This document shows, in pieces, positions 4,575 to 64,000 of a stretch of 64,000 nucleotides of DNA; the first letter of the stretch is position 1, and each line of letters begins with the position of its first letter. The position numbers and the translations under genes are program-made. Source of the DNA: a virus. Its lineage: Duplodnaviria > Heunggongvirae > Uroviricota > Caudoviricetes. The notes beneath the pieces are model-generated. The model was given only the letters and a program-made list of their open reading frames with translations, searched no databases and was not told where the DNA came from. Where the stretch lies: the IMG/VR virus record IMGVR_UViG_3300018475_000095, one strand, 5' to 3'.

Positions 4575-4584
4575 TTATAATCTC

Positions 4585-18611: not shown

Positions 18612-19272
18612 TCACAGAACCCTCTTTTGTGGTATCAATATTTACATATATAGGCGTATTATAAAGATCCCAATAATTAGCATAATCTTTCCAAGCTTTA
18701 TTCAAAATATCTTCTTTATGTTTCTCTTTTAATTTAGATTCTTTTATTATTTCTTTGAAATGAGTATAAGCAATAAAATAGTTATTTTTTGCAAAATCAT
18801 CAAAACCTAATTTGTAAGCAGACATTAATAACTTTAAATTTTTTAATGTTTCTTTTCGTGCATTAATTTCTGTGTCAGTTACATTAAATGGGTCTAAGAC
18901 TTCTAACTTACCTATTTTAAATCTATCATCTTTACCGCTAATAAATTTATAATTTAAAAATTTATCTTTAATAACAAAATCTATTTCTTTATTTATTTCT
19001 TGAGCTTCTTTTGCAAGTCTTTTAAATTCATCTAATTGAGAAGTGACTGCATAACTACAATCTTGGAAAGACCAATCATTATTGCTTTTCACATAAATTT
19101 GCCCATCTTTTATATCTAAAGTATTAGGTGGTGTTAAACCTTCTTTAATTCCTCTTGCAATACTTTCTTTTAAAGAATTATTTGATTCTAATTGTTTATC
19201 CATACTGATAATTATATCAATTAATTCTTCTCTTGTACATTCTGCTAATTTCTTCATTTCCAAATCTGTCAT
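18604..19272 (-). CDS. hypothetical protein
   Basis: 222-aa ORF. Confidence 0.55.
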   Translation of the reverse strand: MTDLEMKKLAECTREELIDIIISMDKQLESNNSLKESIARGIKEGLTPPNTLDIKDGQIYVKSNNDWSFQDCSYAVTSQLDEFKRLAKEAQEINKEIDFVIKDKFLNYKFISGKDDRFKIGKLEVLDPFNVTDTEINARKETLKNLKLLMSAYKLGFDDFAKNNYFIAYTHFKEIIKESKLKEKHKEDILNKAWKDYANYWDLYNTPIYVNIDTTKEGSVNE

Positions 19273-20252
19273 TATTTTATCTCCTTACTATGATTAAATT
19301 GGTCAGCTTCATTTAACAATTTTAAATTATTAAATTTTATATCCCCAAATACTTGTCTCCACTTCCTTTCAGATTTTTCAGTTTTAATATTATACATATG
19401 CATATGATAATTTATGTAAAATACTATATCTAATGTAGTATCATATTTAGGATAATCTTCTCCTAATTGTTCTATCATATACCAAGACATATAATTACAT
19501 AATACTTTATAAGCACCAACATTGGCATGATTATAGTAATGTGCATTAGGGTCATTTTCTTTATATGTCTGCGTATCAAGTTTGCCTATATCATGTAATA
19601 ATCCTGCTTCATATAAAACATTATCTATATCATATAATTGATTAGCAACCGATTCTAAATGTTCATGTAATAATTGAGTATGATGTTTATTATGTTGGTC
19701 AAATCCAAATGCAGATTTCATCATATTATTAAAATTTTCTACAGACTCATTATGCCCTATAATATTATACAGTAATATGTTGTCCCATCCTTCTTCATAA
19801 AAAGGTACTTCAAAAGATTCTAAATATCTTCTAACCACTTCTAATGGAACTTGATGAGAATTTATATCTTCATTTCTTTTTTTAACTCTTTCTATACATA
19901 CTTCATAAGGCGTGTTTACTATGTAACAAATCTTTTTACAAGGTTCTTTTATATTTAAAAATATTTGTTTTCTAGATTTAATTGTAATATTAGTTGCATC
20001 TAGGATAACATTTAATCCTTGTTTCAAAGCTATATTTGCTTGATTATATAAGCGTCTAAAAATAAATTCATTGTTCTCATCTGGAAATTCTTTTCTTAAT
20101 TTATCACTAGATAATACAATCATGTTATATTTCAAACTCAATTCTTCTGCAATAGTTGATTTACCGGAACCTTGCAAACCACACATCACAACCAGTTTAG
20201 GTAACCTATCTTCTGCTATGTCTAATCCTATTATTTTTATATCTTTATTCAT
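19272..20252 (-). CDS. polynucleotide kinase (P-loop) fused to an HD-domain phosphohydrolase
   Basis: Walker A GLQGSGKST at the N-terminus; HD motif HEHLESV...LLHDIGK in the C-terminal half. Confidence 0.75.
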   Translation of the reverse strand: MNKDIKIIGLDIAEDRLPKLVVMCGLQGSGKSTIAEELSLKYNMIVLSSDKLRKEFPDENNEFIFRRLYNQANIALKQGLNVILDATNITIKSRKQIFLNIKEPCKKICYIVNTPYEVCIERVKKRNEDINSHQVPLEVVRRYLESFEVPFYEEGWDNILLYNIIGHNESVENFNNMMKSAFGFDQHNKHHTQLLHEHLESVANQLYDIDNVLYEAGLLHDIGKLDTQTYKENDPNAHYYNHANVGAYKVLCNYMSWYMIEQLGEDYPKYDTTLDIVFYINYHMHMYNIKTEKSERKWRQVFGDIKFNNLKLLNEADQFNHSKEIK

Positions 20253-24070: not shown

Positions 24071-25240
24071 TTAATCTTCTTTTTCTAATTTATAACCTAA
24101 TAAATTCATTTTCTTATCTTTAGATAATTCTTTCCATTCTTGCTTTATAAAATATTCTATTGGGTCTATATCTAAATATTTAAATAGAAACCCTGATAAG
24201 TCTTTATGTTCAGTTAAAATATAATTAGCTAGTTCTTTTCGTTTTTCTTTTTCATTTTCATAGAGGAAAGTATTACTTTTAAATAACATATCATCAATAG
24301 CATCATATATTTTATTTTGCATTTCTTTATATTTAGTTTCTATTTCATTAAATAAATCAGTATATTCTGGGAATAGTCCTAAAAATTCTGATTGCTCATT
24401 CTTTTCTATAATTGAAAGAATTTTTGCTCTTGAATTAACTCCATTATTTTTTAAATAATGTGCAGCTACGTATGCAGGTGATTTAATCTTAATTCTTTTC
24501 CAATATTTATCTACTACAACAAATCCTTCTTCATCATAGCCCATATATTCTACTCTATTCAAGCATTCTTTTAAATTTTGAAAAGGAAATTGTTTTGGAG
24601 TTTTAATAAATTTACTCAACTCAAGAGAATTTGGATCTAACTCTTCAAATGCGAATTTGCATCTTACGCCAATCAAGTATAAAGCATCTTTTCTATATGG
24701 AACAACTACTCTAGATTCTGGAGTTACTAATTCAAATGTATAGCAGTATAATCTATTCAAGCATTCAAACATAGAAGAATTGTTTGGAAAAGTATAATTT
24801 GAGAGAGCTCTGTCAAATAAATCTCTAAAAGATATTCCAAAGTCTCCAACAGGAGCATTACTTGCATCTAATTCACTTGAAGTAGACACCCTCCATTTAT
24901 GTAAGTAATCATCATACCACACAAGCATCTTAGATCCATCTACTTTTTCTAATACTTTTGCACTATCCCAGTCTATCTTATCAGCAAAACTTTCTTGGAC
25001 ATTAAAAAATTTATAGAAAGATAAAGCTGCTGGCTCTAAAATATTTTTGTCTATAATAAGACCTCTACATTCTCTGCATATATCTTCATTAAAATCTGAG
25101 TTTATTTGATTATATTTTAATAATACATAATTTTCATCTTCGTTTATGAATAAATTATAAGGAGCAGCTTGTAGCAACTCTCTCCAATTTTCATGACTCT
25201 TCATAAATTGAATAGTTTTAAGCATTTTCTTCCTCCTCAT
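24071..25240 (-). CDS. RNA ligase, Rnl1-like nucleotidyltransferase family
   Basis: EKVDGS is the KxDG adenylation motif in an Rnl1-like context; 389 aa. Confidence 0.65.
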   Translation of the reverse strand: MRRKKMLKTIQFMKSHENWRELLQAAPYNLFINEDENYVLLKYNQINSDFNEDICRECRGLIIDKNILEPAALSFYKFFNVQESFADKIDWDSAKVLEKVDGSKMLVWYDDYLHKWRVSTSSELDASNAPVGDFGISFRDLFDRALSNYTFPNNSSMFECLNRLYCYTFELVTPESRVVVPYRKDALYLIGVRCKFAFEELDPNSLELSKFIKTPKQFPFQNLKECLNRVEYMGYDEEGFVVVDKYWKRIKIKSPAYVAAHYLKNNGVNSRAKILSIIEKNEQSEFLGLFPEYTDLFNEIETKYKEMQNKIYDAIDDMLFKSNTFLYENEKEKRKELANYILTEHKDLSGFLFKYLDIDPIEYFIKQEWKELSKDKKMNLLGYKLEKED

Positions 25241-31129: not shown

Positions 31130-32299
31130 TTAATTATTTATTTCAATTATATATCTAATAGTACATTGATTACTATTATATACAATATATTCATCGTTTC
31201 TTAAATCAGCACCACCTCTAGCAAATACTGAATTACATTTTTGTGATTTAACTTGATCTTCAGTAATCCTGCCCATCCAAGATTTATAACTTTCATTATC
31301 TAAAATTCGCCATTCTTGACCTGTAGCAAATTCAAATATAGTTAGATAAGCTTTATTACTTGAGCCAGATGCCCAATAACTACCTCTTAATGATGTATAA
31401 CCAATGCTTTTTCTTGCTTTATTAGCTGCATATATACCATTACCAAACATCGAACCTGTTAAGACAACACCCTTAGGTCTAATTTTTAACCCTGTTTGCA
31501 TAATGCTTAGATAATTCTCATTTCTACTTCCATGATATAAAAGTCTTGTTTTAAGATTATCTGGATTAAATACTTTCTCAGTTTCATGATTTGTAACTCT
31601 AAATATTTTTTGATTATTAACTCTAAAATCAGTATTGGCAGCTATAAATTCTCTTTCTTCTTGCGTTGCTAATCTACAATCAAACCCAAGTGTTTCTAAT
31701 GTTATATCTTCAATTTTATTAGATTGGGTATTCAAATTAACTTGTGATTTAAGTGTGTTGAGTTTATTTTGTTCTTCTTGTAATAATTCTATAAATTCTT
31801 GTTTAGTGTAATTAGGTTTTAAGAAAAAAGCTCTTGTATCATACATTTTTCTTGGTATAGTTGTATACACCTTTTGAAGATAGTTATTTATAATATTATA
31901 AGGTAATTTTGTTAAATCCAAGTCATTCAACTCGTCTAATATTTCTTGGACTTTATTTATTTGAATATCTGAAATTGAGTCCAGTGATACTTCATAATTT
32001 GATTTGATAGACTGTTTTGCACAACTCATAAGAAATGAAATTAAATCTTTAACATCTTTATCATCTATCTTTAAAGAAGCTTTTTTAATGTCTTGAGATA
32101 AAGATTCACTTATATCAACATACCCTTTCTTTATTTTTTCATTGTATTTTTTATCCCATTGAGACATAGAGTAAGAAGTTTTTACACTTGTAGCTCCAAC
32201 TCTTCCATATTCAACTTCGAAAGTACCGTCACCGAGATCTGTCATATTGTAAAACTTATTATTATTGTTAGGTGTAACACATATTAACTTTTTATTCAT
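31130..32299 (-). CDS. PARP-like ADP-ribosyltransferase (N-terminal WGR domain plus PARP catalytic domain)
   Basis: LLYHGSRNEN...GSMFGNGIYAANKARKS matches the PARP H-G-S/Y-[FY]/E signature region. N-terminal FEVEYGRVG resembles the WGR motif. Confidence 0.8.
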   Translation of the reverse strand: MNKKLICVTPNNNNKFYNMTDLGDGTFEVEYGRVGATSVKTSYSMSQWDKKYNEKIKKGYVDISESLSQDIKKASLKIDDKDVKDLISFLMSCAKQSIKSNYEVSLDSISDIQINKVQEILDELNDLDLTKLPYNIINNYLQKVYTTIPRKMYDTRAFFLKPNYTKQEFIELLQEEQNKLNTLKSQVNLNTQSNKIEDITLETLGFDCRLATQEEREFIAANTDFRVNNQKIFRVTNHETEKVFNPDNLKTRLLYHGSRNENYLSIMQTGLKIRPKGVVLTGSMFGNGIYAANKARKSIGYTSLRGSYWASGSSNKAYLTIFEFATGQEWRILDNESYKSWMGRITEDQVKSQKCNSVFARGGADLRNDEYIVYNSNQCTIRYIIEINN

Positions 32300-34821: not shown

Positions 34822-35232
34822 TTATTTTAAAGCATCCATAGCTTCATTTGCTAATTTATCTGCCCTGTTATTAAATTCATTATCTGAGTGTCCTTTTACT
34901 TTTATGAATCTAATATCTTTAAATTTATTTATATATGTATACAGTTCTTCCCATAAATCTAAATTAGCTTTTTTATTCCAATTTAAATTAATTGTACTAA
35001 CTACATATTGGCTATCTGAATATACTTCAATAGGAATATCATATACTTTTAATGCTTTTAACCCTTCTATCACAGATAAAATTTCCATTTTATTATTAGT
35101 TGTATTTCGAAAAGCATTTTTTAGTTCTTTATATTGATCTTGGTACTGAAGCACTATCCCATAACCACCTATGTTTTCTGCAAATTGATTTCCTCTACAA
35201 GCACCATCAGCATATATCTTAATTTTCTCCAT
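34822..35232 (-). CDS. rnhA: ribonuclease HI
   Basis: YADGACRGN, MEILSVIEGL, SDSQYV and KGHSDNEFNNRADKLA match RNase H catalytic blocks. Confidence 0.85.
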   Translation of the reverse strand: MEKIKIYADGACRGNQFAENIGGYGIVLQYQDQYKELKNAFRNTTNNKMEILSVIEGLKALKVYDIPIEVYSDSQYVVSTINLNWNKKANLDLWEELYTYINKFKDIRFIKVKGHSDNEFNNRADKLANEAMDALK

Positions 35233-36490
35233 TTAAGTATCTCCTTGTAATTTCAGATAAAGTTTCTATTGTGTTTAGTTGGGAATTCTCCATAACTTTG
35301 CCTAATAAGAAATTAAGAACCTTACCTATCTTCTCACCACTTATATCAAATGTAGATTGAAGAAAGTGCCCATCTATTGCCAAGTCTTGTAATCTATATG
35401 GTTGACTTGTAATTTCTGACAAATCTATTCCTTCTATTTTTGTGTAAATACCCAAATACTTGCATACGTATGCATGTTCAAATTTATTGAATAGTTGCTT
35501 GATTGTTAGGACAATATCTTGTTGCTGAACATCTTCCATAAACTTTGACATCTTATAATAGCTAATAACCTCTTTGATTTGTTGGTTACTATATTTATAT
35601 AACCTCATCCAAATTTCTGCATCTATCATTGACTTATACTTATTCAATATTGAATACAACTTTAACATAGGTGGGTTGTCATTATCTATATCTATGATGA
35701 CCTGGTTACTACCCCATTTACTTACTTTGTTTTGAGGTATCTCAAATATCTCTGCTAGTGTTTCTATTGTTGAATTTAAAGTTTCAGAATTACCTTTTGA
35801 ATATTCTAATATCTTCTTAACTTCTTCAGTAATTCTTTCTTTTGATACATTCTTTAAGAGACTACCAGTACCCGCTATAACATTGCTTGTTGCATTCTCT
35901 AACTCAAAATTATACTTACAAGCAAATCTAATGCCCCTTAAAATTCTCAAAGCATCTTCTTTTATTCTAACCTGTGGGTCTCCTACTGCTTTAACTATTT
36001 TATTTTTAATATCTTCAACACCATTATGTGGGTCTACTATACCTACTAATGGGTTATAAGCAATAGCATTCATAGTAAAATCTCTTCTATCTAAATCATC
36101 TATAATAGATTCACCAAAAGTTACATTATTTGGTCTTCTACCATCAGTGTAATCGCTATCATATCTAAATGTGGTTATTTCATAAATACCTGCAAGATGT
36201 TCATATTTATTTAATTTATATTTTTCTATAACTTCAATAGTCATAGTGCCATATTTTTCTCCTGTTGGAATAACTTTAAAATAAATATCCATATCACTCT
36301 TGTGAAAACTATTATCTTCAAATAGTTTCTTTGTTTCAGCAGGTAAAGCACTTGTTGCTATATCCCAATCTTTTGGTTCAATACCTAATATAGAATCTCT
36401 AATAGCGCCACCAACTGCATATGCTGCATAACCATTTTCATTTAACATGTTTATTAGTAATTCAACATATTTTGGTAATTTTATCTCCAT
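35219..36490 (-). CDS. cca: tRNA nucleotidyltransferase (CCA-adding enzyme / poly(A) polymerase family)
   Basis: YAVGGAIRD...DWDIAT is the class II head-domain motif. Confidence 0.8.
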   Translation of the reverse strand: MEIKLPKYVELLINMLNENGYAAYAVGGAIRDSILGIEPKDWDIATSALPAETKKLFEDNSFHKSDMDIYFKVIPTGEKYGTMTIEVIEKYKLNKYEHLAGIYEITTFRYDSDYTDGRRPNNVTFGESIIDDLDRRDFTMNAIAYNPLVGIVDPHNGVEDIKNKIVKAVGDPQVRIKEDALRILRGIRFACKYNFELENATSNVIAGTGSLLKNVSKERITEEVKKILEYSKGNSETLNSTIETLAEIFEIPQNKVSKWGSNQVIIDIDNDNPPMLKLYSILNKYKSMIDAEIWMRLYKYSNQQIKEVISYYKMSKFMEDVQQQDIVLTIKQLFNKFEHAYVCKYLGIYTKIEGIDLSEITSQPYRLQDLAIDGHFLQSTFDISGEKIGKVLNFLLGKVMENSQLNTIETLSEITRRYLNGEN

Positions 36491-37865: not shown

Positions 37866-38410
37866 TATTTTTCGGTACCTCTATTTTGAAATTTTTTATT
37901 ATAACCACATGGATTAAATTCTGTGCACACGCCTCCTCTATATGCACAAAGTGGAACAAGTAAATCTTTGAACTCTGGATTGACCTCAATTACTTGTCTG
38001 CAGATTTCTTTTACTACATCTCTTGTTTCAGGTGAGGCTTGGTTACATAATCTTTTATGAGCCAAGAATAATAGTTCTTGTGCATTGATGGACATAATAT
38101 GAGATACAATCGCACCTTGTGGTTTTTCTGCTCTTGGTGTTGCATCATTTGTTCTATCATCTCTTTGTGTTTGCACATAATGATTAACCCCAATATGATG
38201 TCTTACAAGATGAACTGATACATAATAAGGTATCTCCATTTTAATACCAAACCATAATTCTCTTATAGGTGAATGTTCTGCCATAAGTAATTTTACTTTC
38301 CAAGCATCCGTTGCATCTTTTGTAGATGTTTTACCTACCGTGTTGAGCGTACATTTTCGAACATATCTCCAATCTTCTTTGGTTGGATGTTTTAAAATTT
38401 CTACTTTCAT
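37865..38410 (-). CDS. divergent ThyX-like (flavin-dependent thymidylate synthase-like) protein
   Basis: EHSPIRELWFGIKMEIPYYVSVHLVRHHIGVNHYVQTQR parallels the ThyX RHR...S...R block, but reads RHH and is only 181 aa. Confidence 0.5.
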   Translation of the reverse strand: MKVEILKHPTKEDWRYVRKCTLNTVGKTSTKDATDAWKVKLLMAEHSPIRELWFGIKMEIPYYVSVHLVRHHIGVNHYVQTQRDDRTNDATPRAEKPQGAIVSHIMSINAQELLFLAHKRLCNQASPETRDVVKEICRQVIEVNPEFKDLLVPLCAYRGGVCTEFNPCGYNKKFQNRGTEK

Positions 38411-39498
38411 TATAGTATGATCTCCTCCAATGGTTCTTTGTATTTTAATACAGTATCAGTTATAACTTTACTGTTTACATCGGTGACAAATTTATTCAAT
38501 TCATCATAATTAGGTGTTTTTTGCAATGTAGAATGTCTCTCTGCTAATTGTAATCTTTTATTTAATCCATTTAAAGTATTTGTAAATTCTGCTGTTAAAT
38601 GACCATCTTTTATAAACTTACCATTTCTGATATCCAATAGAAAATCCCTATCATCTTCTCTATAAGAATTTAATACACCTTTCTCTAGTATCTCACAACA
38701 AGTTATGATTAGTCTAAATAAGTGCATGCAATGTTTATTCAATTTTTCCATAGTTGGTTTAGTATTTCTTTGATTTATTTTATTATAACTTTTTTCTATA
38801 GTTAATATATCATTTAAAGAACTTCTTACTAGGTCTATTGGTGCTTGTTTTATATTACAGTCAATATAAAGTTTATCTAAATCTGCAGTAACATTTATAC
38901 AGCCGTCTGCAAATAATTTGTTTGATTCAGATAGTTTCATCATAGCAACATCCATTGTTTGCTTTATATGTTTTACTTTTTCTTCTTCAGTATATTCAGT
39001 ACTTGCTAAAGCATTTTCAATTTTTCTTAATTGCGCTACTGCGTAACCATTAAATGTTTGATAACATTTTTTACTTAATAATAAAGGTAAACTATCAAGT
39101 AAGTCATGCCCAATTTCATTAAATATAAGATAATGTTTGAAACCTAACATTTCAATCACATTTGGGTTATTTGCCATAGCAAGTTTGATAAATTGATTAA
39201 ACTCATAAATAGTTGTGTCTGTGCTCGAATCTTCTCTTTGTTTAAAAGTTTTTAACCCAATCAATTCATCTTTAGTGGGTAGCATAACTCCTCTTATATC
39301 AATATCACTACCTTCTACATTAGTACCATATCCATGAGAACCTGATATAACTAAGAAGCATAATCTATCTTTATATTCTTCTAGCCATCTATACTCAGGT
39401 TTACTTATTATTTCTTTTATATTCAACATACATTTATCCTTTCTAATTTTATCAGCAACTAATTTGGCTAGAGTTCTTACTTCATCTATATTAGACAT
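38410..39498 (-). CDS. pol-beta superfamily minimal nucleotidyltransferase
   Basis: GSHGYGTNVEGSDIDI is the GS...DxD NTase motif. Confidence 0.65.
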   Translation of the reverse strand: MSNIDEVRTLAKLVADKIRKDKCMLNIKEIISKPEYRWLEEYKDRLCFLVISGSHGYGTNVEGSDIDIRGVMLPTKDELIGLKTFKQREDSSTDTTIYEFNQFIKLAMANNPNVIEMLGFKHYLIFNEIGHDLLDSLPLLLSKKCYQTFNGYAVAQLRKIENALASTEYTEEEKVKHIKQTMDVAMMKLSESNKLFADGCINVTADLDKLYIDCNIKQAPIDLVRSSLNDILTIEKSYNKINQRNTKPTMEKLNKHCMHLFRLIITCCEILEKGVLNSYREDDRDFLLDIRNGKFIKDGHLTAEFTNTLNGLNKRLQLAERHSTLQKTPNYDELNKFVTDVNSKVITDTVLKYKEPLEEIIL

Positions 39499-39990: not shown

Positions 39991-40119
39991 TTAATTATCT
40001 TTATGATCTTTTATAACATCAGCTAATATGTCAAGTCCACACAAACAAGTAGCTAATATACTAAACCAAAGTGGGCAAGAAGTTACCCATACTGATACTA
40101 TGAATAATGCACTAAGCAT
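39991..40119 (-). CDS. small membrane peptide (42 aa)
   Basis: GGAGG plus 5 nt then ATG, overlapping the end of the SPFH gene; hydrophobic. Confidence 0.35.
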   Translation of the reverse strand: MLSALFIVSVWVTSCPLWFSILATCLCGLDILADVIKDHKDN

Positions 40120-41158
40120 TTGAACCTCCAATATAACCTAACAATTCTTTAAGGAATTCATCCCCTACTAATGTTTCAGGTAACTTACCATCCCATTTGT
40201 CTATCGCCATTTGAGTTAAAATTGCTTCTTTAACTTCTGCTGTTAAAGTATTCCAAGTTGCATTCATTATTTCAAGAGCTTCTGCCTCTGCTTGTGCAAG
40301 TACTAACTCTGATTCAGCTTCTTTCTTTGCTTTTTCTAATAATGCTTCAGCTTCTTTTTTAGCAACCTCTAGTTGTTGTTCTGCTTGAATAATTGCTTTT
40401 TCTTTTTCATACTCTGCTTTGATTTTTTCTTGTTCTGCAATCATCTTATCTTCTACGGTTTTTTCAAAAGCATCACTAAAACTAATATCTGTTAATACAA
40501 CACTTGTGATATTAACATAATAGTCGTTTGTAATTGCGGCTCTAATCGATTCTTCTACATCTGGTGATACAGTTGCTCTTGTTTCAATTATTTTCATTGC
40601 GGATTTTTGAGATAACACACTTTTCATTTTCTCATTAGCAACTGTTTCAATTCTTGATTGTAGCATTTCAAGACCACCATAATTAGTTGCTATTTTCATT
40701 GCATTTTCTTGTTGAATTTGAAATTGAATTACTAACTCAATATCCATCGTTTGTCCATCACTAGAATATGCCTGTGTTTGAATAGTCGACTGTTGAACTT
40801 TTGTATCATAAATTTCGTACTTATGACTTAACCAAAAATCAAAATGCATTCCTGGAGTTCTAACTTCTTTAGCTTCACCCCAAATCTTTACTACAGCTAC
40901 TTGTCCTGCTTCAATCTGATGATAGCTACCTGGTACTATGATGAGCACAAAGAAACTTACAAGTGCAAGTATGCTTGATGCAATCAATTGAATTAGTTTT
41001 GGTTTCTTAATATATGTAACTGTCTTTTTTCCTCTAATATATTCAGCAACTTGAGTATCAACTTCTTTTTGTCCTTTCAAATTCTTAGCAGAAAAACAAG
41101 CCCAAGTTATTCCTACTGCTAATAAAATTAATGGTAAAATAATGAATATAATTTTCAT
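40112..41158 (-). CDS. SPFH/band-7 (stomatin/prohibitin-like) membrane protein
   Basis: N-terminal TM helix, YHQIEAGQVAVVKIWGE SPFH core, and an Ala/Glu-rich coiled coil. Confidence 0.8.
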   Translation of the reverse strand: MKIIFIILPLILLAVGITWACFSAKNLKGQKEVDTQVAEYIRGKKTVTYIKKPKLIQLIASSILALVSFFVLIIVPGSYHQIEAGQVAVVKIWGEAKEVRTPGMHFDFWLSHKYEIYDTKVQQSTIQTQAYSSDGQTMDIELVIQFQIQQENAMKIATNYGGLEMLQSRIETVANEKMKSVLSQKSAMKIIETRATVSPDVEESIRAAITNDYYVNITSVVLTDISFSDAFEKTVEDKMIAEQEKIKAEYEKEKAIIQAEQQLEVAKKEAEALLEKAKKEAESELVLAQAEAEALEIMNATWNTLTAEVKEAILTQMAIDKWDGKLPETLVGDEFLKELLGYIGGSNA

Positions 41159-44530: not shown

Positions 44531-47500
44531 TTATTCAATAGGAACTCCTGTGTGTTTGACTCTATCTTCTACTTCCGCTATCTTACCTTCATTAAAATTA
44601 TGATAATCTGTAGAAACATATCCTGTAACTCTTCTTAATCTTTCAATATTATCTGAACCACATTCTGGACATTTATCATTCATTTCTTCTTGATGTCCGC
44701 AGTCCATACAAACATCATTTGGTACGTTTATAGCAAAGTAAGGTATATCTTTATCCATAGCATAATTAACTAATTTTTCAATAGCTTCTATATTATGAAT
44801 TGAAGATGAATCTAATTCTACATAAGTAATACACCCAGCTGAAGAATAACCTGTTAATTGACTTTCAATATCTATTTTATCAAAAGCATTTATGTTATGG
44901 TATACTGGAACATGCATTGAATTAGTAAAATATTTTCTATCAGATATATTTGGAATAATACCATATTTTTCTTTAAATTTAGTCATAGCAGTTTTACATA
45001 AAGATTCTGCAGGAGTATAATAAACACCAAAATTTAATTTATATTGTTCTTTAAAATAAGCACATTTATCTTTAAATAATTGTTCTATCTTTTTAGCAAG
45101 TTCCATACCTTCTTTTGTAGTATGGTCTTTTCCAATTAATATTTGTAAACATTCAGCAAGACCTAATTGACCTATAACTAATGTTCCATGTTTTAAAGCA
45201 CTCCTAATTCCTTCTTCTGGAATATAACCAGCCATTGTGTTATTTTCATACATAAATGGGGCTGATTTAGGTGATTGGCTACAGATATGCTCAAATCTTT
45301 CTATCAAAGAGTCTTTTGCTTCATTTATTTTACATTCAAGTAATCTCATAAATACATCTATATCTGATTCTTCTGAAGCTCTTGTACATTCTTTAGATTT
45401 CATTGCTATTGTTGGTAATATAATAGTAGTAGGTGCAATATTTCCTCTACCATCTTTTTGTTGTTTTAAACCATTAATATCCCAACCATTTGCAGTTCTA
45501 CAGTTATGCATTATAATATCTGAACCTATAAATGAACCAGTTTCAGTACCTATATCGTAGCTATCAACTGCTTCCCAATGCCAACATATATCAGTTATTT
45601 CTAACTCTAAATTATCAGCTCTATAAAGTTTATCACCTATTTTTAATTGATCTGCTCTTGTAAATTTATCTCCTGTCCATAGAGGGTGATCTTCAGTACA
45701 AGACAAACAATATTCTTTATCGTATTCTTTGTAATAGATATGCATCATATACGGAGTATTTAATTTATCATTTTTAAAGATATGTTTGATCTTTACCCAT
45801 TTATTATCTCTATCTAATACTTTAATATCAAATTCAGATAAATCAATCAATTCTTGTTTTTTACTCAAATCAACTTTAAATACAGGTCTATCATATACTC
45901 TATGCCTAGATTTTTGAGTAATTAACTTATAATATTTCTTATCTGTTCCTCTAGGATTTATATTTGCATTCTTTTGAATATAAAGGTTTTCAGCTTCTTT
46001 ATAATCTTCAGTTATTTCTAATACTTTAAATTCATAATTAGCTGTATCAATATCCCCAAAATTTATTCCTGCATCAATCCCACCTGTTTTGCCTATAGCA
46101 CATTTATGCTCAGCGCATCTTCTAGAAATAGAACTTGAACTTCCAATATATGTGACATCTTCTGGTAAATAAGTTATTGAATAAACACCTGGTAGATTAG
46201 GTAATCCAGATTTTTCTTGATAATGTCTACCTAAAGGCTCTTCATTTAATTTTTCTCTGTTATACCAAATCTGTGTTTTCTTATAATTTTGTAAATCATC
46301 TGTTTTACAATAATCAAATAAGTCTCTGATAGATAAGTCAATAGGTTCTTCATTTCCTATTTTAACTGTTAGATGTTCATGACCACTCAAAGCACCCATT
46401 GTACTAAAATATGTTTTTGGATCATTTACATCGTAACCTGCATTACCACTCCAATCAACTGAGGCATAATTTGGATACAATCTCTTTGAAGTTGATTTTA
46501 ATGCTAACTTAAATAAGTCATAATTTGGATCGCCCGGTTTTCTGTTAACACCTTTCATGCACTGGAATATACCACAAGGGAATATACTTGTTCTATGATA
46601 TTTTCCTAAACCTTCAATAGATACATTTAACAATTCTTCTGTTATCATTCTACCTTCTGGTAAAGTGCAAGTTCCATAATTTATAGAGCTAAATGGTAGT
46701 TGTTGTCCACTTCTTGATTGTAATGAATTTAAATTGTGATATAATGCTTCAACTGCTTGATGTGTTTCTTTTTCAGTTTGTCTCATAGCATATTCATAAG
46801 CATCTTGATTTAGTTTATATTTTTCGTCAATTATAGAAGTTTCTTTTGTAATTCCTTCTAAATACTTTTCATTACCGAACCAATATAATCCTTCTTTATA
46901 ATGTTTATAAAAACTCTTTCTTACATAAGGGACCATTGACCAATCAAAGTGAGTATATGATACACCACCAAATTGACATAAACTTTGTAATTGCATTATA
47001 ACAGCTGACAATTGCATCGCTGTATTTACTGTTCCAGCAGGTCTTATATCTGTCTGTTTAACTTTAAATCCTTTTGCTAATAAATCATCTAAAGGAATTG
47101 ATAAACAATTATGCATACCACTTGCATAAGCATCTAAATCATGTATATAAATTTCATTATTAATATGATTATTTCTAGTAGTTTCTGATACTAAATTATT
47201 AAGTGCATATTCTTTTAATATAGTTCCAAATGCTTCTTTCTCTCTTCCACTGAAAGTATTTTCATCTAGGTTTGCATTTGAATTTTCTACATTCTTTGCT
47301 TCTAGTTTAGCTTTAACTTTATTCATTAGTTCAGTATAACTATTTCTAGCTAGTTTATGTAATTGTCTATATTCTATGTATGCTTTTGCTTGTTCATATT
47401 TATTAGCTTCCATCAAAGTTAGTTCTACAATATCTTGAATTTGTTCTACAGTATAATTTTTTCTTTTATCTAATTGTTGTGTTACTTTATTTGTTAATTC

Positions 47501-47626
47501 TGTTATCACACCATCATTAACATACTCACCTTTAGGACAACAATCTTCAAAACAACCTAATATTGCTTTCCATATTTTATACTCATCAAATTTTTGCTTT
47601 GATCCATCTCGTTTTATAATTTGCAT
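44531..47626 (-). CDS. nrdD: anaerobic ribonucleoside-triphosphate reductase, interrupted by an intein-like insertion
   Basis: Class III RNR; C-terminal CMDCGHQ...CPECGS zinc ribbon plus glycyl-radical RVTGYVS. At 1031 aa it is far longer than typical NrdD. Confidence 0.9.
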   Translation of the reverse strand: MQIIKRDGSKQKFDEYKIWKAILGCFEDCCPKGEYVNDGVITELTNKVTQQLDKRKNYTVEQIQDIVELTLMEANKYEQAKAYIEYRQLHKLARNSYTELMNKVKAKLEAKNVENSNANLDENTFSGREKEAFGTILKEYALNNLVSETTRNNHINNEIYIHDLDAYASGMHNCLSIPLDDLLAKGFKVKQTDIRPAGTVNTAMQLSAVIMQLQSLCQFGGVSYTHFDWSMVPYVRKSFYKHYKEGLYWFGNEKYLEGITKETSIIDEKYKLNQDAYEYAMRQTEKETHQAVEALYHNLNSLQSRSGQQLPFSSINYGTCTLPEGRMITEELLNVSIEGLGKYHRTSIFPCGIFQCMKGVNRKPGDPNYDLFKLALKSTSKRLYPNYASVDWSGNAGYDVNDPKTYFSTMGALSGHEHLTVKIGNEEPIDLSIRDLFDYCKTDDLQNYKKTQIWYNREKLNEEPLGRHYQEKSGLPNLPGVYSITYLPEDVTYIGSSSSISRRCAEHKCAIGKTGGIDAGINFGDIDTANYEFKVLEITEDYKEAENLYIQKNANINPRGTDKKYYKLITQKSRHRVYDRPVFKVDLSKKQELIDLSEFDIKVLDRDNKWVKIKHIFKNDKLNTPYMMHIYYKEYDKEYCLSCTEDHPLWTGDKFTRADQLKIGDKLYRADNLELEITDICWHWEAVDSYDIGTETGSFIGSDIIMHNCRTANGWDINGLKQQKDGRGNIAPTTIILPTIAMKSKECTRASEESDIDVFMRLLECKINEAKDSLIERFEHICSQSPKSAPFMYENNTMAGYIPEEGIRSALKHGTLVIGQLGLAECLQILIGKDHTTKEGMELAKKIEQLFKDKCAYFKEQYKLNFGVYYTPAESLCKTAMTKFKEKYGIIPNISDRKYFTNSMHVPVYHNINAFDKIDIESQLTGYSSAGCITYVELDSSSIHNIEAIEKLVNYAMDKDIPYFAINVPNDVCMDCGHQEEMNDKCPECGSDNIERLRRVTGYVSTDYHNFNEGKIAEVEDRVKHTGVPIE
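45506..46396 (-). mobile_element. intein-like (Hint) element within nrdD carrying a GIY-YIG endonuclease domain
   Basis: Block-A-like ALSGHEHLTVKIG...IRDL, GIY-YIG core GVYSITYL...YIGSS...R...EH, block-B-like TEDHPLWT, and block F/G SYDIGTETGSFIGSDIIMHN followed by Cys. Confidence 0.55.
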
Positions 47627-57199: not shown

Positions 57200-57330
57200 T
57201 CTCCTTTAATAATATTAAGTTAAATAGCTCTGGTAACTTAGTAGGTGCACCATTACCAAAGCTAAGTTACTTAAAATGAGTAAGTTTGGTTAAAACAGCT
57301 CAACCAGCGTGAAGGTACTTACTCATTGAG
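57200..57330 (-). ncRNA. structured element immediately 3' of the suppressor tRNA
   Basis: Two perfect stems: ATGAGTAAGT/ACTTACTCAT (57276-85 with 57317-26) and GTAACTTAG/CTAAGTTAC (57233-41 with 57262-70), the latter enclosing the GGTGCACC palindrome. Confidence 0.35.
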
Positions 57331-57331
57331 C

Positions 57332-57425
57332 CAGGGGTTGCAGGAATCGAACCCGCGCTATAGGTTTTGGAGACCTATTGTTACGGTTTTGAAGACCGCT
57401 TGACTTCCAATTATCGTACACCCCT
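57332..57425 (-). tRNA. tRNA-Trp-like opal suppressor, anticodon UCA, with a second CCA-anticodon-like hairpin in the variable region
   Basis: Hand-folded from AGGGGTG (A1:U72, G73). D-loop AATTGGAA. Anticodon arm GCGGT-CTTCAAA-ACCGT. A 26-nt variable arm contains ATAGGT-CTCCAAA-ACCTAT. T-arm GCGGG-TTCGATT-CCTGC. No encoded CCA. Confidence 0.6.
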
Positions 57426-57745
57426 ACATGGATAAGTTGTTTCTTGGCTGTCTTTCCGCAAGTGTCAAGATTCTTTTTGTTAAGATTACTCTAATTTATC
57501 ATTGGCTCACTTATCAAGAACCAAACGTTTGCTAGTGGAACGCTACACCCTATCACTCCGTTGGTATAGGACAACATGGTTTTAAAGCGACTTTTCCTTG
57601 TCGAAATTATTTACAAGACCTGAAAAAGATATTCTCCCAACGAATAGTTTTTTAAAATTGCTGTAAAGGTCTTATTTTTTACAAGACACAGTATAAAACG
57701 AATTTCAAGTTCCTTATGTAGAATTGCTGTATGTGTCTTATTATA

Positions 57746-59251
57746 TTATACAGTTTTTAATGTAATTTCTGCATATCTATCTTTAGTTATTTCTTTTAGC
57801 AATGCTATATATGGATCTATTTCATTTGATAAAACCATATTTACGACTGCTGGACTAAATCCTGATACTAAAGCTACCCCTAAATCATTTTGAATTACTG
57901 GGATTGTCTTTGTTCTTGAATTAACATTCCAGAAAGACATTTTAGGTAATTTATAACCTGCATTCTCATATCTTTGTCTTATAGCATCAAATAATTTAGC
58001 ATCTGGAGCAGTATGATCCCATCTATTAGTTCTTGTTGCGTTTGTTGTAGCACATTCATCAAATTCCATATCTGATATAATTAAAATATTTGGTATCTCT
58101 TCTTGAGACATATTATTTTTAACTGCTGTTTTTAATATTAAATCAAATACAGCTTCAATATTAGTATTAGCAACCTCTGCTTCTGCATAAGCTACATTTA
58201 ATTTATCTTTTAAATTATCATATTTTTCAAAAGAAACTAATCTTGGTTGATTCGAAAAAGTGATAAATTTATCTTTAAACTCACCTTTACATCTTTCTGC
58301 AAAATAAATAGATAATGCAGTTGCAACATCTAATGCAGATGTGCTAGTCTTTCCTACATTACAAGTCATCGAACCTGAACCATCTCTAACTACTATAGTT
58401 GAACTATCTCCTTGAACATAATCAGGTAAAGATTTCCATAATTCTTCTAATGTGATATCTTTATTTCTACAATTTCTATACTTGCAAACTATATCATGAG
58501 GGAATAGAGTTGAAGCATTTATTTTTGTCTCACCTTTTTCAAGTTTAGATAAATAATCTCTTCTTCTATCTTCATCATGTCTTAAAAATGCCCCCATATA
58601 TTTTATGTTAGCTTGAGATGGTACATTTTCATATTTTATCTCTTCCCATTTATTTGAAGAACATTTTCTTTCTAACACATCTAAATGGTTTCTTAAATCA
58701 GAAAGCATTTTTCTATAATCTTTTTCTGACATTCCTAAATAAGATTTAATTCTCCTTGCTTTTCGTTTTGTTTCGCTTGAAGATGTATTTATTGATGGCA
58801 TCCATTTAGCTAATAATGATATAGGCTCTTTATTAACAAGATTTTTAGCATCTTTTCTCAATTGGGTTTTTACGTATTCAAGCATTTGTTTTTCTAGTTT
58901 AGTACCAAAGAAAACAAATAAATCATCGTATCTACCAAATTCAACAATCCAATCAAATACTCTTTCATCTAATTCATCTATAATTTCAGTTACACATGTT
59001 CTAAATAGTCTTCTTTCTCCTAAACCTTCTCTTGCATCTCTAGCATAGAATAGGTATTTAAGAGCGAGTTCTTTGTTTTCAAACCATGCTTTTTTAAATT
59101 CTATCTCAATTTCTTCTTCACTTGAATCCCTAAATGAAGATATTTTAAAGTTAAAGTCTAATAATGCTTTACCAGTAGCAGCATACCCTTTTGCACCATT
59201 TTCTGTGGTTGAGGTATTTAATTCATTTTTTAATCCTTGTAAAAATGTCAT
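57746..59251 (-). CDS. vWA-domain protein with Ro60/TROVE-like architecture (helical N-domain plus MIDAS)
   Basis: VVRDGSGSM is a MIDAS motif, preceded by a roughly 280-aa helical region. Size and domain order resemble Ro60/Rsr. Confidence 0.6.
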   Translation of the reverse strand: MTFLQGLKNELNTSTTENGAKGYAATGKALLDFNFKISSFRDSSEEEIEIEFKKAWFENKELALKYLFYARDAREGLGERRLFRTCVTEIIDELDERVFDWIVEFGRYDDLFVFFGTKLEKQMLEYVKTQLRKDAKNLVNKEPISLLAKWMPSINTSSSETKRKARRIKSYLGMSEKDYRKMLSDLRNHLDVLERKCSSNKWEEIKYENVPSQANIKYMGAFLRHDEDRRRDYLSKLEKGETKINASTLFPHDIVCKYRNCRNKDITLEELWKSLPDYVQGDSSTIVVRDGSGSMTCNVGKTSTSALDVATALSIYFAERCKGEFKDKFITFSNQPRLVSFEKYDNLKDKLNVAYAEAEVANTNIEAVFDLILKTAVKNNMSQEEIPNILIISDMEFDECATTNATRTNRWDHTAPDAKLFDAIRQRYENAGYKLPKMSFWNVNSRTKTIPVIQNDLGVALVSGFSPAVVNMVLSNEIDPYIALLKEITKDRYAEITLKTV

Positions 59252-59421: not shown

Positions 59422-60162
59422 CTATTCTTTTATTTTTAACACATTTATTCTTTTTGAATAAGCGGTCATTGCATCTAATGCTATAATTCCAGCATCTTCA
59501 AATGGTTCAAAGCACTCATATTCACTGCCATATTTCTTGTGTAGATTAAAATGCCCATACCCTGAATGCCAATGACCACATACTATAGTTTTATCTTTTT
59601 CTCTTACCCTATCATTCCATGCTTTCATACCATTGACCCATCGAGCACATTCCCAGTGATAATCATTACTATTTCTCCAATCTGGATTATAATTCAAAAT
59701 AGCATTGCTTGTCTCATAAGGTTCAGTTGCTGTTGTAAATGAAGGTATCCAACCGTGTACTATAATATATTTATCAACTTCAAAATAATTTACACAATTC
59801 TTTTTTATGAATTTAAGTACTTTCTTTAAATATCTTTCGTCTTGTAACTGCATACATGTAGATATAGTTCCATTTGAATAGTGATATGAAGAAGCAGCAC
59901 CACCTGTAAAATTTAACTCCTTAACACATTCTTCTAACAAATCTTCATGATTACCTCTTACATATACAAATCTTTTCTTATTGTTTAACCATTGAACAAA
60001 TTTAAATAATTCTACAGCCTCATTACCTCTATCAAATAAATCACCCGCCACTACTAGTATATGGTCTGGATTTTTTAAATCAAATTTTTTCTTCTTTAAT
60101 TCTTTCTTAAGTATGGAATAAAAACCATGGACATCACTAACTACAAAATATGTTTTACTCAC
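59422..60162 (-). CDS. calcineurin-like metallophosphoesterase
   Basis: SDVHG, GDLFDRG and GNHE motifs. Confidence 0.7.
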   Translation of the reverse strand: MSKTYFVVSDVHGFYSILKKELKKKKFDLKNPDHILVVAGDLFDRGNEAVELFKFVQWLNNKKRFVYVRGNHEDLLEECVKELNFTGGAASSYHYSNGTISTCMQLQDERYLKKVLKFIKKNCVNYFEVDKYIIVHGWIPSFTTATEPYETSNAILNYNPDWRNSNDYHWECARWVNGMKAWNDRVREKDKTIVCGHWHSGYGHFNLHKKYGSEYECFEPFEDAGIIALDAMTAYSKRINVLKIKE

Positions 60163-61761: not shown

Positions 61762-61837
61762 TGGTGTTCCCACCTGGATTCGAACCAAGATTTAAGGTTT
61801 AGAAGACCCTTGTACTAATCCCTTATACTATGAGAAC
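61762..61837 (-). tRNA. tRNA-Arg (UCU)
   Basis: Loop CTTCTAA, T-arm CTTGG-TTCGAAT-CCAGG, CCA. Confidence 0.7.
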
Positions 61838-61840
61838 AAA

Positions 61841-61916
61841 TGGTTGCGGGGACTGGGCTCGAACCAGTGACCTTCGGATAATGAGTCCGACGAGATTCCA
61901 TCTTCTCCACCCCGCT
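61841..61916 (-). tRNA. tRNA-Met (CAU) with unpaired 1:72 (A.A), possibly initiator-type
   Basis: Loop CTCATTA, T-loop TTCGAGC, acceptor AGCGGGG/CCCCGCA, CCA. Confidence 0.6.
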
Positions 61917-62179
61917 ATATAAATGTCTATGTGGAGTCACCTCACTAACAATATAAGACTGATACGACTTGCTATTTTGGATTACAAGCTTTACCTGCAA
62001 CTTAACATATGATACATTCGCAATCGATTAAGCTCTTTATTCGAGACATATCTCTGGTACTTAATGAAACCACCTATCTTTTGACTATAAGTTGATAAGT
62101 ACTTATTTATACCATAGGATTTACACCTATACTTTCCCGTATCCATATCGGGCTGGTCTAATATTTAACCTAGATATAA

Positions 62180-62264
62180 TGGTGGGATGTTATGGACTCG
62201 AACCACCGAACTCCGAAGAGATGAGATTTACAGTCTCAGGTCATTGCCGCTAGACAAACATCCC
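62180..62264 (-). tRNA. tRNA-Tyr (GUA), type II
   Basis: Acceptor GGGATGT/ACATCCC, loop CTGTAAA, long variable arm, CCA. Confidence 0.65.
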
Positions 62265-62267
62265 ATG

Positions 62268-62795
62268 TGGTGGACCCTCAGGGACTCGAACCCCGGACCA
62301 ACCGGTTCATCATCGATTGAGCTTATTTTAAGGAAGAAAGAATCTTATCAGCTAAGTAATCTTGCGCCATATGTATTCCGAGCTCTTGTTTATTTTTTGG
62401 TTCAACTAATCTCAACGTAAATGTTCTTGTTTTAATTTCCTCTTTAGGCAAAAGATAACATTTTCCAGCGATCGCTGTACAGAAGAAATCAATTTCTGAA
62501 TCATCATAAAATTTTACTCTTTTGTTATTACCGGAAGTTAATTGAACATACAAGTATTCATCATTATTTTTTAACTTTCCGCTTTTACATTGGATACGAT
62601 ATAATTTATTTTTATAATCAATAATAAAATCATATCTAAGTGAACCAAAAGGAATTGATATTCCGCAACCTAAACTTTGTAAATAATGCATTGAAGCAAG
62701 CTCAGCGCAATTTCCTTTAACAGCACTCTCTTCCATATAATACCTCTTAATCTTCTTGATGAGCCGGTAGCTCTAACCAACTGAGCTAAGGGTCC
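62268..62795 (-). tRNA. tRNA (CAU anticodon, Met/Ile2-type) interrupted between nt 36 and 37 by a 451-bp insertion (62308-62758)
   Basis: 5' half is GGACCCT-TA-GCTC-AGTTGGTTA-GAGC-T-ACCGG-CTCAT (62795..62759). 3' half is AA-CCGGT...CGGGG-TTCGAGT-CCCTG-AGGGTCC-A-CCA (62307..62268). The halves pair as the acceptor and anticodon stems. Confidence 0.6.
62323..62736 (-). CDS. Hjc-like PD-(D/E)xK nuclease encoded inside a tRNA anticodon-loop insertion
   Basis: GNCAELASMHYLQSLGCGI...YDFIIDYKNKLYRIQCK parallels the archaeal Hjc GxxAE...G...D...E(V)K pattern, with Q in place of E. AAGAGG RBS. Confidence 0.55.
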   Translation of the reverse strand: MEESAVKGNCAELASMHYLQSLGCGISIPFGSLRYDFIIDYKNKLYRIQCKSGKLKNNDEYLYVQLTSGNNKRVKFYDDSEIDFFCTAIAGKCYLLPKEEIKTRTFTLRLVEPKNKQELGIHMAQDYLADKILSSLK

Positions 62796-63067
62796 ACGGT
62801 CTTGGACGTTACATTTTTATTTTATAGACCATCATCCAAGGCAGGTCTAATTGTGTTTGGGCAGTTCATCTAACTCCATTTAACTACAGCTGCTGTTTCC
62901 GCACCATTTCCCTTCGAGATTTTTACTGATTATATAATCACGATTTTAGGAGCAACATCTTGAAGTAATGTGTCCCTTGGCTTCGTAGCACCCATACACA
63001 AATTTCTAATTTAATATCAATATATTTTATGTACACTTAAATATATTCTCTAAGGTATTAGCACCTA

Positions 63068-63143
63068 TGGAGCTTCCAGTCCGAGTCGAACGGACAACCT
63101 ACTGATTACAAGTCAGTTGCGCTGCCAATTGCGCCATGGAAGC
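63068..63143 (-). tRNA. tRNA-Thr (UGU)
   Basis: Acceptor GCTTCCA/TGGAAGC, D GCGC/GCGC, loop CTTGTAA, CCA. Confidence 0.75.
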
Positions 63144-63145
63144 AT

Positions 63146-63221
63146 TGGTCCGAATGGAGGGACTCGAACCCCCGACCTCATGGTCCCAAACCACGCAGTC
63201 TACCAACTGACCTACATTCGG
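63146..63221 (-). tRNA. tRNA-Pro (UGG)
   Basis: C1:G72, loop TTTGGGA with G37, T-loop TTCGAGT, CCA. Confidence 0.7.
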
Positions 63222-63480
63222 ATAAAGTATATTTTATATAATATGATAGGTTGGTTTATTCAAATTATATAAACTCGATTTATCAATTATTATTATCAGT
63301 TTTATAGTGTAACATCAAATATACAAACTTCCCACTTTTGTGCACCTTTTTGTCTCGTCAAAATTCTAAAAACGTATGTACCCTACCGCTTTCTACATAA
63401 GGAACGGAGATTTTACTTTGAAACTCACAAAGTCATGTCGAACCCATCTGCATTTTTATCTAACCGTCGTTAGAGGGTTA

Positions 63481-63759: not shown

Positions 63760-63833
63760 TGGCTCCCCGGGTCCGATTCGAACGGACGGCCTATCGGTTA
63801 ACAGCCGAGTGCTCCACCGCTGAGCTATTGAGG
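63760..63833 (-). tRNA. tRNA-Asn (GUU)-like gene with a non-complementary 3' acceptor strand (possible pseudo or chimeric tRNA)
   Basis: Positions 1-65 are canonical: GCCTCAA-TA-GCTC...loop CTGTTAA...GTCCG-TTCGAAT-CGGAC. Positions 66-72 read CCGGGGA, which cannot pair with GCCTCAA. Confidence 0.4.
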
Positions 63834-64000
63834 CTTAACACTAAGTATTATATGCTTTGTTTTTCAATGTGTCAACACTTTTATGCAAATTTTATAAAAA
63901 AGATTTATTGTTTTTATAAATATTAAACAATGAAAAAATGTTTAAATAATTAAAAGTAAAAATACTGCATTCTATACCCCGGGTATCTTGGTGCGCGCCC

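Follow-up and report, generated by a model that had tools for sequence, protein, structure and literature searches.

How does a phage obtain a working tRNA, if it obtains one at all, from a gene whose anticodon loop is interrupted by a homing endonuclease gene? The question is raised by a locus in a 64,000-nucleotide (nt) stretch of DNA from a virus of the class Caudoviricetes (IMG/VR record IMGVR_UViG_3300018475_000095; this whole stretch is referred to below as the window). There, a tRNA gene with a CAU anticodon is split by an insert of which all but 37 nt (22 + 15) are taken up by an open reading frame (ORF) for a nuclease. We argue that the insert is one of a family of mobile elements in phage tRNA genes, whose two ends fold together with the anticodon stem into a single covarying rod, and that it is best explained as a mobile intervening sequence outside the group I, group II and bulge-helix-bulge classes of intron. 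More specifically, its sequence features suggest, with a probability that we put at about one half, a mobile tRNA intron that lacks a ribozyme and is spliced by proteins.

A CAU tRNA gene split between nucleotides 36 and 37

The split tRNA (coordinates and sequences in Table 1) was overlooked both by ARAGORN at its standard settings and by the Rfam tRNA model. With introns allowed, ARAGORN reports a single tRNA at exactly 62268..62795 with an intron of 451 nt and a misplaced junction; we rejected that junction (anticodon ATG, 'tRNA-His') in favor of the CAT supported by an intact homologue. The homologue, an uninterrupted tRNA gene at IMG/VR locus L140, equals the split tRNA in the D arm, the anticodon arm (loop CTCATAA) and the variable loop, and differs from it in compensated acceptor pairs plus one T-loop base. 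This likeness far exceeds chance and fixes the junction between CTCAT and AA, that is, between positions 36 and 37, and when the halves are fused at that point ARAGORN calls a normal tRNA with anticodon CAT. The initial annotation, which had placed the split between these two nucleotides, thus holds in its coordinates and in its reading of the sequence, and the split tRNA is a real, non-random feature shared across a family of loci.

The pair G1-C72 excludes an initiator tRNA, and the best match of the spliced sequence in an E. coli collection is a gene of a P1-type plasmid annotated as tRNA-Ile; on these two grounds, the split tRNA is probably a lysidine-dependent tRNA-Ile2, the reader of AUA. 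Another tRNA of the window (61841-61916) is the one that we take to be initiator-like, from its likeness to the E. coli tRNA-fMet sequence. AUA makes up 52% of the Ile codons in window genes and, at 47 per 1000, is their sixth commonest codon, and a tRNA scan of the window found no other tRNA decoding it. Since standard tRNA finders overlook such split genes, phage tRNA repertoires are under-counted, and in the window the tRNA overlooked is the only AUA decoder seen.

The insert's ORF product has the PD-(D/E)xK fold with catalytic E, D and Q/E-x-K residues, and belongs to Pfam family PF11645 (PDDEXK_5; E 1.6e-19, 70.8 bits against a cut-off of 26.1). The family alignment shows no variation at D36, Q49 or K51 and next to none at E12. 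A search of PDB sequences with the ORF alone returned I-Ssp6803I (2OST) as its sole match (E 0.003), a match that reaches E 5e-15 with the family profile, and I-Ssp6803I is also the nearest solved structure, with the archaeal resolvase Hjc second. An earlier description of the product as an Hjc-like PD-(D/E)xK nuclease recalling I-Ssp6803I was therefore apt on both counts, with I-Ssp6803I the top match by sequence and by structure. The window copy is not a free-standing endonuclease gene, as it sits inside the tRNA.

Homologues of the ORF protein number 29 at E <= 0.001. Single-protein queries of IMG/VR with the endonuclease, and with the window's Rnl1-type RNA ligase (see below), gave no useful close relatives. 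JGI metagenomes yielded 2 distant matches and GTDB genomes 4 small contigs of metagenome-assembled genomes; in GenBank phages, nothing but the tRNAs was matched.

A family of inserts with a rod across both junctions

At 78 IMG/VR loci, the endonuclease gene nearly always lies in phage tRNA arrays and is mostly bracketed by tRNA halves. We analyzed the junctions of 42 loci (40 distinct junction sequences), in which inserts of 450-531 nt, with a leader of ~20-40 nt and a tail of ~13-17 nt, always sit at 36/37, in tRNAs of 13 anticodon classes (CAU, UGC, GUC, UCU, UAC, UGU, UGG, UUU, GUU, UGA, GCU, UUC and UCC). Joining the halves at 36/37 yields a valid tRNA with the expected anticodon in 41/42, the exception being cut by a contig end. 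The tRNA bodies suit their anticodons, with a long variable arm in the Ser tRNAs and, by eye, G3-U70 in Ala, G37 in Pro and C38 in Asp. The architecture seen in the window recurs in L001, L002/L003, L006, L214 and L215, which together with the window form a clade of 7 sequences (the window clade) whose proteins are 58-65% identical to the window's.

When the insert ends are joined and folded with RNAfold, the anticodon stem continues as one helix through U33-A37, the anticodon paired with insert positions -1..-3, and +1..+5 paired with -4..-8 (the insert being numbered from its first base as +1 and from its last base as -1). Beyond this helix the rod passes through an internal loop into a second helix, in which the leader pairs with the last part of the ORF, stop codon included. 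Across the 40 family sequences, 83% of the cells of the rod are paired, compared with 56% in shuffles, and covariation stands at 0.747 versus 0.231, a value reached by 0/500 shuffles; sliding the partner strand by 1-3 columns lowers the pairing to 29-44%. The best-kept pairs are those that surround the junctions: 33-37 (100%), 34:-1 (97.5%), 35:-2 (95%), 36:-3 (100%) and +1:-4 (97.5%).

Within the window clade the extension of the stem amounts to 6 base pairs (bp), namely U33-A37, CAU with AUG, C+1-G-4 and A+2-U-5. It is followed by an internal loop of AGWA opposite GA (in the window, AGAA opposite G-7 A-6), by a helix that we call P2a, by a 2-nt bulge and by a last helix, P2b. Three of the four pairs of P2a show double changes (GAUU/AAUC, GGCU/AGCU, GUCU/AGAC, GUUC/GAGC, GUCU/AGAU and GUUC/GAAU), and 97.6% of the cells of the clade's rod are paired, compared with 13-45% when it is slid. 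Within the rod, C32/A38 mismatches persist of the kind that is typical of tRNAs. As shown by covariation, the rod places the two exon–insert junctions 3 bp apart on one helix, with the anticodon forming the 3′ overhang.

The inserts also bear marks of mobility. Two near-identical segments, L010 and L011, differ in that the former has an intact tRNA-Asp gene and the latter the same gene with a 484-nt endonuclease insert. The inserts of L002 and L003 are 98.0% identical (9 differences/456 nt) in exons that are 82-87% identical and flanks that are 60-65% identical, and a compensated anticodon-stem change lies directly beside the junction. Such close identity of the insert in diverged exons and flanks argues that it passes from one phage to another, diverged one and takes along very little flanking sequence by co-conversion, as is expected of a homing element. 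The evidence for spread into empty sites is thus indirect but clear. At the DNA level, an enzyme of the I-Ssp6803I type would presumably cut uninterrupted genes for the same tRNA in co-infecting phages, and the cassette would be copied in by repair, an account of homing that is well supported by these comparisons.

Other loci vary the pattern. L011 carries two inserts (2439-2984 and 4303-4859), one in tRNA-Val(UAC) and one in tRNA-Asp(GUC), whose endonucleases fall into separate sub-clades; in the tRNA-Asp copies, that of L063 included, GTC stands at both insert ends, which leaves the junction ambiguous by 3 nt. Free-standing PF11645 relatives lie between tRNA genes in L025, L040, L056, L060 and L069. 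In L033 (1467-1961), between a complete tRNA-Leu and a complete tRNA-Ala, the endonuclease gene keeps the full rod (TCTGC-TTTGT-CAGAT...CATTG-TCAG-ACA-AA-GCAGA) on a bare anticodon stem-loop that has no acceptor, D or T arms, and L019 seemingly lacks the 5′ tRNA half. L078 (1390-1960) has an intact tRNA-Asn followed by the endonuclease ORF and then by a duplicate of the T arm and acceptor 3′ end, an insertion architecture that differs from the anticodon-loop type.

Candidates for ORF-less mini-rods in the fetched loci were not convincing, being chimeras or group I tRNA-Leu introns. A tRNA-Leu(UAA) gene with a canonical group I intron is present in a related phage array (L016 329-642); the copies at L030 757-1173 and L074 214-650 share the 3′ end and give no RF00028 (group I intron model) match at E<=0.01. 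Insert-bearing arrays also contain ROOL RNAs (190-315 bits; L002 3561-4154, L007 3267-3839 and L053 2412-2998) and, in one case, a RAGATH-33 RNA (L074 664-792).

Proposed protein splicing and its alternatives

In the account that we favor, the starting point is the covarying structure, in which the tail pairs with the anticodon and the leader with the tail, so that the anticodon stem grows into a long rod with the ORF as its loop. A protein endonuclease would cut both strands of the rod while the tRNA body holds the halves together, and the phage's own Rnl1-type ligase would seal them in the anticodon loop, once a polynucleotide kinase–HD protein (Pnk-HD) had healed the ends, should these be cyclic phosphate and 5′-OH. 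The sealed product would be a restored AUA-reading tRNA, serving the phage's commonest Ile codon. A 7-nt loop calls for a stagger of 3 nt (or 1 nt), which makes RNase III alone unfit; we rejected it as sole nuclease, since no such loop can result when a fully paired helix is cut with its 2-nt stagger. In one version of this account, the insert's own PD-(D/E)xK enzyme would also cut the pre-tRNA rod at both junctions, leaving 5′-P and 3′-OH ends for Rnl1 to seal directly. The cut would run across the anticodon with a 3-nt 3′ stagger, the geometry with which I-Ssp6803I cuts DNA. We looked in the upper (insert) part of the rod for mimicry of the endonuclease's DNA half-site and saw none, which makes it less likely that the endonuclease cuts RNA, and we regard this version as improbable.

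The initial annotation had offered three alternatives, namely a ribozyme core overlapping the ORF, splicing by a protein, and a dead insertion; the last two still stand, with protein splicing favored, and the first has become very improbable. The case for an RNA hidden in the insert that splices or cleaves itself, be it a group I core laid over the ORF or small ribozymes at the termini together with a ligase, begins with the window copy, in which U is the last base of the exon and G that of the insert, as the group I framing of that annotation would have it. Moreover, the window clade has conserved termini, CAAGWAG and YGAUGAUG, and there are known group I introns at 36/37 of tRNA-Ile2 and, with PF11645 genes, at 33/34 of cyanobacterial tRNA-fMet (PMC13011429). 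A search with RF00028, which the annotation had proposed, gave no match at E<=10 over window positions 61800-63300 and none at E<=1 over 14 related loci, despite finding the genuine group I intron of the tRNA-Leu(UAA) in L016 (354-572, 61.5 bits), by which we know that the model works in such material. A group I core takes ~200 nt or more of structured RNA, and the insert offers 37 non-coding nt and an ORF without synonymous constraint: among 6 homologous ORFs (mean pairwise amino acid identity 68%), third-codon-position identity is flat at 0.35-0.65 throughout, which argues against an RNA core hidden in the coding sequence. Family-wide, the 5′ exon closes on whatever base stands at position 36 of the anticodon (U, C or G) and the insert closes on a base complementary to position 34 (A, C, G or U); in the window clade U36 pairs with A-3 of the tail rather than with a 5′ guide sequence. 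Because the terminal bases follow the anticodon in this way, the U and G of the window copy are coincidental, an accident of its CAU anticodon. No small-ribozyme family of Rfam matched in the window region or in the 14 related loci, and the rod by itself accounts for all conserved non-coding bases. We rejected hammerhead, hairpin, kink-turn and C/D-box readings of CAAGWAG and GAUGAUG, as their partial likenesses (CUGAUGA, in L002 only; the AGAA loop; UGAUGA) fail across the clade and covariation explains these bases as rod pairs; a ribozyme acting in trans or displaced into the gaps at 62796-63067 and 61917-62179 was likewise set aside, since their position is not conserved in L002/L006 and they have no Rfam match. 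Taken together, these results make a hidden ribozyme very unlikely. An archaeal-type bulge-helix-bulge intron, cut by an EndA-like enzyme and joined by RtcB, would have the same topology, with the end of the 5′ exon paired with the 3′ end of the insert, the 5′ end of the insert paired further in, and the same direction of stagger. Such an intron has two 3-nt bulges flanking a 4-bp helix, however, whereas here the junction pairs are 95-100% paired and the helix is continuous through both junctions; the insert lies at 36/37 and not 37/38, and it is found in a phage whose promoters and tRNAs are of bacterial type. In no register that we worked by hand does a 3-4-3 motif go together with a mature loop of 7 nt, and none of the 20 window proteins scanned against Pfam belongs to the EndA family. 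We consider this reading extremely improbable.

The main rival to protein splicing is an unspliced selfish insertion, in which the endonuclease gene would have homed into the anticodon loop and inactivated the tRNA, leaving the endonuclease gene as the sole beneficiary of the rod and the halves. The unit would then be freed from a polycistronic tRNA transcript by RNase P and RNase Z, and the rod would shield the mRNA, cover its ribosome-binding site or provide a site for RNase III, a picture with which the position of the Shine-Dalgarno-like AAGAGG, partly inside P2b, agrees. The locus where rod and gene persist although the tRNA body is absent (L033) and the partial or rearranged tRNA remnants of L019 and L078 are readily accommodated in this way, and free-standing homing endonucleases are known from phage tRNA clusters, for example T4 SegB (cited in PMC8421152). 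Recent and frequent homing would also lead one to expect intact exons even without selection. What such an insertion would not lead one to expect is that the most damaging position of a tRNA is always the one taken, in 13 anticodon classes, when intergenic sites are usable, or that the targets are mostly readers of A-ending codons, which AT-rich phages need; in the window, it would have destroyed the sole AUA decoder seen. Nor would a stabilizing clamp need pairing that is tightest at both junctions and unbroken from the anticodon stem, or the tRNA-typical mismatches kept within it. We therefore hold a selfish insertion to be possible but less likely than splicing. Splicing, for its part, would account for the canonical halves, the defined junction, the breadth of anticodon classes, the junction-tight rod, the presence of Rnl1 and Pnk-HD and the need for AUA decoding, and also for the repeated hits on anticodon loops by elements whose relatives can use intergenic sites. 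Several considerations weigh on the other side. We know of no endonuclease that would make cuts with a 3-nt 3′ stagger in an RNA helix without a break, and the stagger left by RNase III is 2 nt. Homing constantly reaches fresh, intact tRNA genes, so that intact exons are no proof of selection after insertion, and the rods of L033 and L019, without a tRNA body and without a 5′ half, respectively, imply that a rod can persist for the endonuclease gene itself. Large phages with tRNA arrays, moreover, commonly have RNA-repair genes whether or not they carry introns.

Known systems and genomic setting

The nearest parallel is the tRNA-fMet intron of Synechocystis PCC 6803 with I-Ssp6803I, which is reportedly ~650 nt long and resembles the insert in its PF11645 endonuclease, its place in a CAU anticodon loop and its presumed homing. 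That intron, however, is a genuine group I ribozyme in which the ORF is carried as a passenger, whereas the insert lies at 36/37, in a phage, with no ribozyme detected, 37 non-coding nt and relatives in 12 other anticodon classes; it does not qualify as an endonuclease gene inside a self-splicing group I intron. The group I intron of the Azoarcus tRNA-Ile(CAU), an ORF-less ribozyme of ~200 nt at 36/37, occupies the same point of the same type of tRNA, in contrast to the window insert, which is an ORF without a detectable ribozyme (the Azoarcus pre-tRNA-Ile system is named in PMC13168695). Archaeal and eukaryal introns (EndA/Sen with RtcB or Trl1) share the insertion in the anticodon loop, the pairing of the insert with the anticodon and with itself, and the placing of both junctions on one extended helix, and the cut, heal and seal chemistry proposed here matches the fungal and plant Trl1 pathway; the insert differs in its lack of bulges, in lying one position upstream, in its bacterial and viral setting and in its homing endonuclease gene. 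T4 SegB and the endonucleases of the T5 tRNA region are similarly encoded in phage tRNA arrays and target the tRNA genes of related phages, but these genes are intergenic and interrupt nothing, unlike the window copy in its anticodon loop with a junction-spanning rod. The tRNA introns reported as 'enigmatic' in Lak megaphages (PMC6784885) are likewise unexplained insertions near the anticodon of phage tRNAs, varying in presence between similar genomes. Those shown are ~90 nt long and ORF-less with a tRNA-like piece, and the one that we inspected (Tyr GTA) has no rod complementary to its anticodon; a kinship with the insert is unproven. In the full-text literature, most subscription journals lying outside its scope, no account came to light of phage tRNAs interrupted by PF11645 inserts that consist of the ORF only.

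On the prevailing view, the tRNA introns of bacteria and phages are without exception self-splicing ribozymes, and splicing of tRNA introns by enzymes is a distinguishing trait of archaea and eukaryotes. How the enzyme-spliced introns arose is a long-standing question, and the archaeal splicing endonuclease EndA has been proposed to derive from PD-(D/E)xK nucleases. If the inserts are spliced, they would constitute a new class of intron and make the question of origin testable in a simple system. If, in addition, their own enzyme cuts the RNA, they would be a counterpart of archaeal and eukaryal splicing in a bacterial virus and would show, in a present-day system, the step by which EndA has been proposed to arise. 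If they are unspliced, homing endonucleases would routinely sacrifice the tRNAs that AT-rich phages need most, building mRNAs scaffolded by tRNA.

Table 1. Features of the split tRNA, its insert and related genes in the window
Feature	Coordinates	Strand	Description
tRNA 5′ half	62795..62759	-	GGACCCTTAGCTCAGTTGGTTAGAGCTACCGGCTCAT; sequence read
Parts of tRNA 5′ half	62759..62795	-	acceptor 5′ strand, D arm, anticodon stem 5′ strand, C32 U33 C34 A35 U36
Insert	62758..62308	-	451 nt, between tRNA positions 36 and 37; starts CAAGAAG, ends GATGATG
Insert 5′ leader	62758..62737	-	22 nt; conserved CAAGAAG
Shine-Dalgarno-like AAGAGG in leader	62748..62743	-	
ORF, I-Ssp6803I-family PD-(D/E)xK homing endonuclease	62736..62323	-	137 amino acids
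Insert 3′ tail	62322..62308	-	15 nt; GCTCAATCGATGATG
tRNA 3′ half	62307..62268	-	AACCGGTTGGTCCGGGGTTCGAGTCCCTGAGGGTCCACCA; sequence read
Parts of tRNA 3′ half	62268..62307	-	A37 A38, anticodon stem 3′ strand, variable loop, T arm, acceptor 3′ strand, encoded CCA
Predicted exon join (from sequence)			...GAGCTACCGGCTCAT to AACCGGTTGGTCC...; acceptor GGACCCT/AGGGTCC
Rod	62768..62744 and 62321..62301	-	
P2a	+7..+10 (62752..62749) with -8..-11	-	window-clade helix
P2b	+13..+15 (62746..62744) with -12..-14	-	GAA/UUC; GAG/CUC in window
Sigma-70-type promoter	63847..63875	-	TTGACA-17-TATAAT, 12/12 consensus; head of tRNA array
T4 Rnl1-type RNA ligase	24071..25240	-	PHROG 562 E 8e-46; PDB T4 Rnl1 2C5U E 1.4e-5
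Polynucleotide kinase (P-loop) fused to HD phosphohydrolase (Pnk-HD)	19272..20252	-	Pfam AAA_33 5e-24, HD 7e-5
RNA-repair-type set	19272-20252, 24071-25240, 35219-36490, 38410-39498, 40112-41158, 57746-59251, 59422-60162	all -	Pnk-HD, Rnl1, CCA-adding enzyme, RlaP, Band-7/SPFH, DUF2828+DUF7788, metallophosphoesterase

The promoter at the head of the tRNA array (Table 1) is the likely source of a transcript that would carry both the split tRNA and the endonuclease ORF, as no terminator-like site was found on the minus strand between it and the split tRNA. Its first downstream element (63760-63835, minus strand) is tRNA-like, with an Asn-type loop CTGTTAA and unpaired acceptor strands; the Rfam match covers model positions 8-63 only, and ARAGORN gives no call. 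The array also has three gaps of ~260-270 nt (61917-62179, 62796-63067 and 63222-63480, minus strand) with no tRNA, notable ORF or Rfam match.

As in T4-type repair, the window encodes both an Rnl1-family ligase and a polynucleotide kinase/phosphatase. Rnl1 and Pnkp have an established role in resealing tRNAs broken in the anticodon loop, and such modules are relatives of the fungal and plant tRNA-splicing ligase Trl1. The window's ligase, whose PHROG family is annotated 'RNA ligase and tail fiber protein attachment catalyst', is a candidate for the enzyme that would seal the split tRNA. The kinase, assigned by PHROG to polynucleotide kinases and matching in PDB the C. thermocellum Pnkp kinase domain (1.4e-8) and Pnkp1 (4e-6), is a candidate for healing RNA ends. 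A DUF2828/DUF7788 gene, one of the wider RNA-repair-type set, also precedes the tRNA array of L007.

We note several further features of the window, all on its minus strand. A 97-nt tRNA with anticodon TCA (57330-57426), called as 'SeC', could be an opal suppressor; TGA terminates just 6/63 of the listed ORFs. In the ORF for the anaerobic ribonucleotide reductase NrdD (44531-47626, 1031 amino acids), the ATP-cone part is separated from the catalytic part by a GIY-YIG nuclease domain (residues 480-555), which may be a second homing-endonuclease insertion, either in-frame or associated with an intron or intein. Cargo unusual for a phage comprises a protein with a PARP catalytic domain and a weak WGR match (31130-32299; E 3e-4, below the Pfam cut-off), as well as a 489-amino-acid protein with an N-terminal Cu/Zn superoxide dismutase domain (13271-14740).

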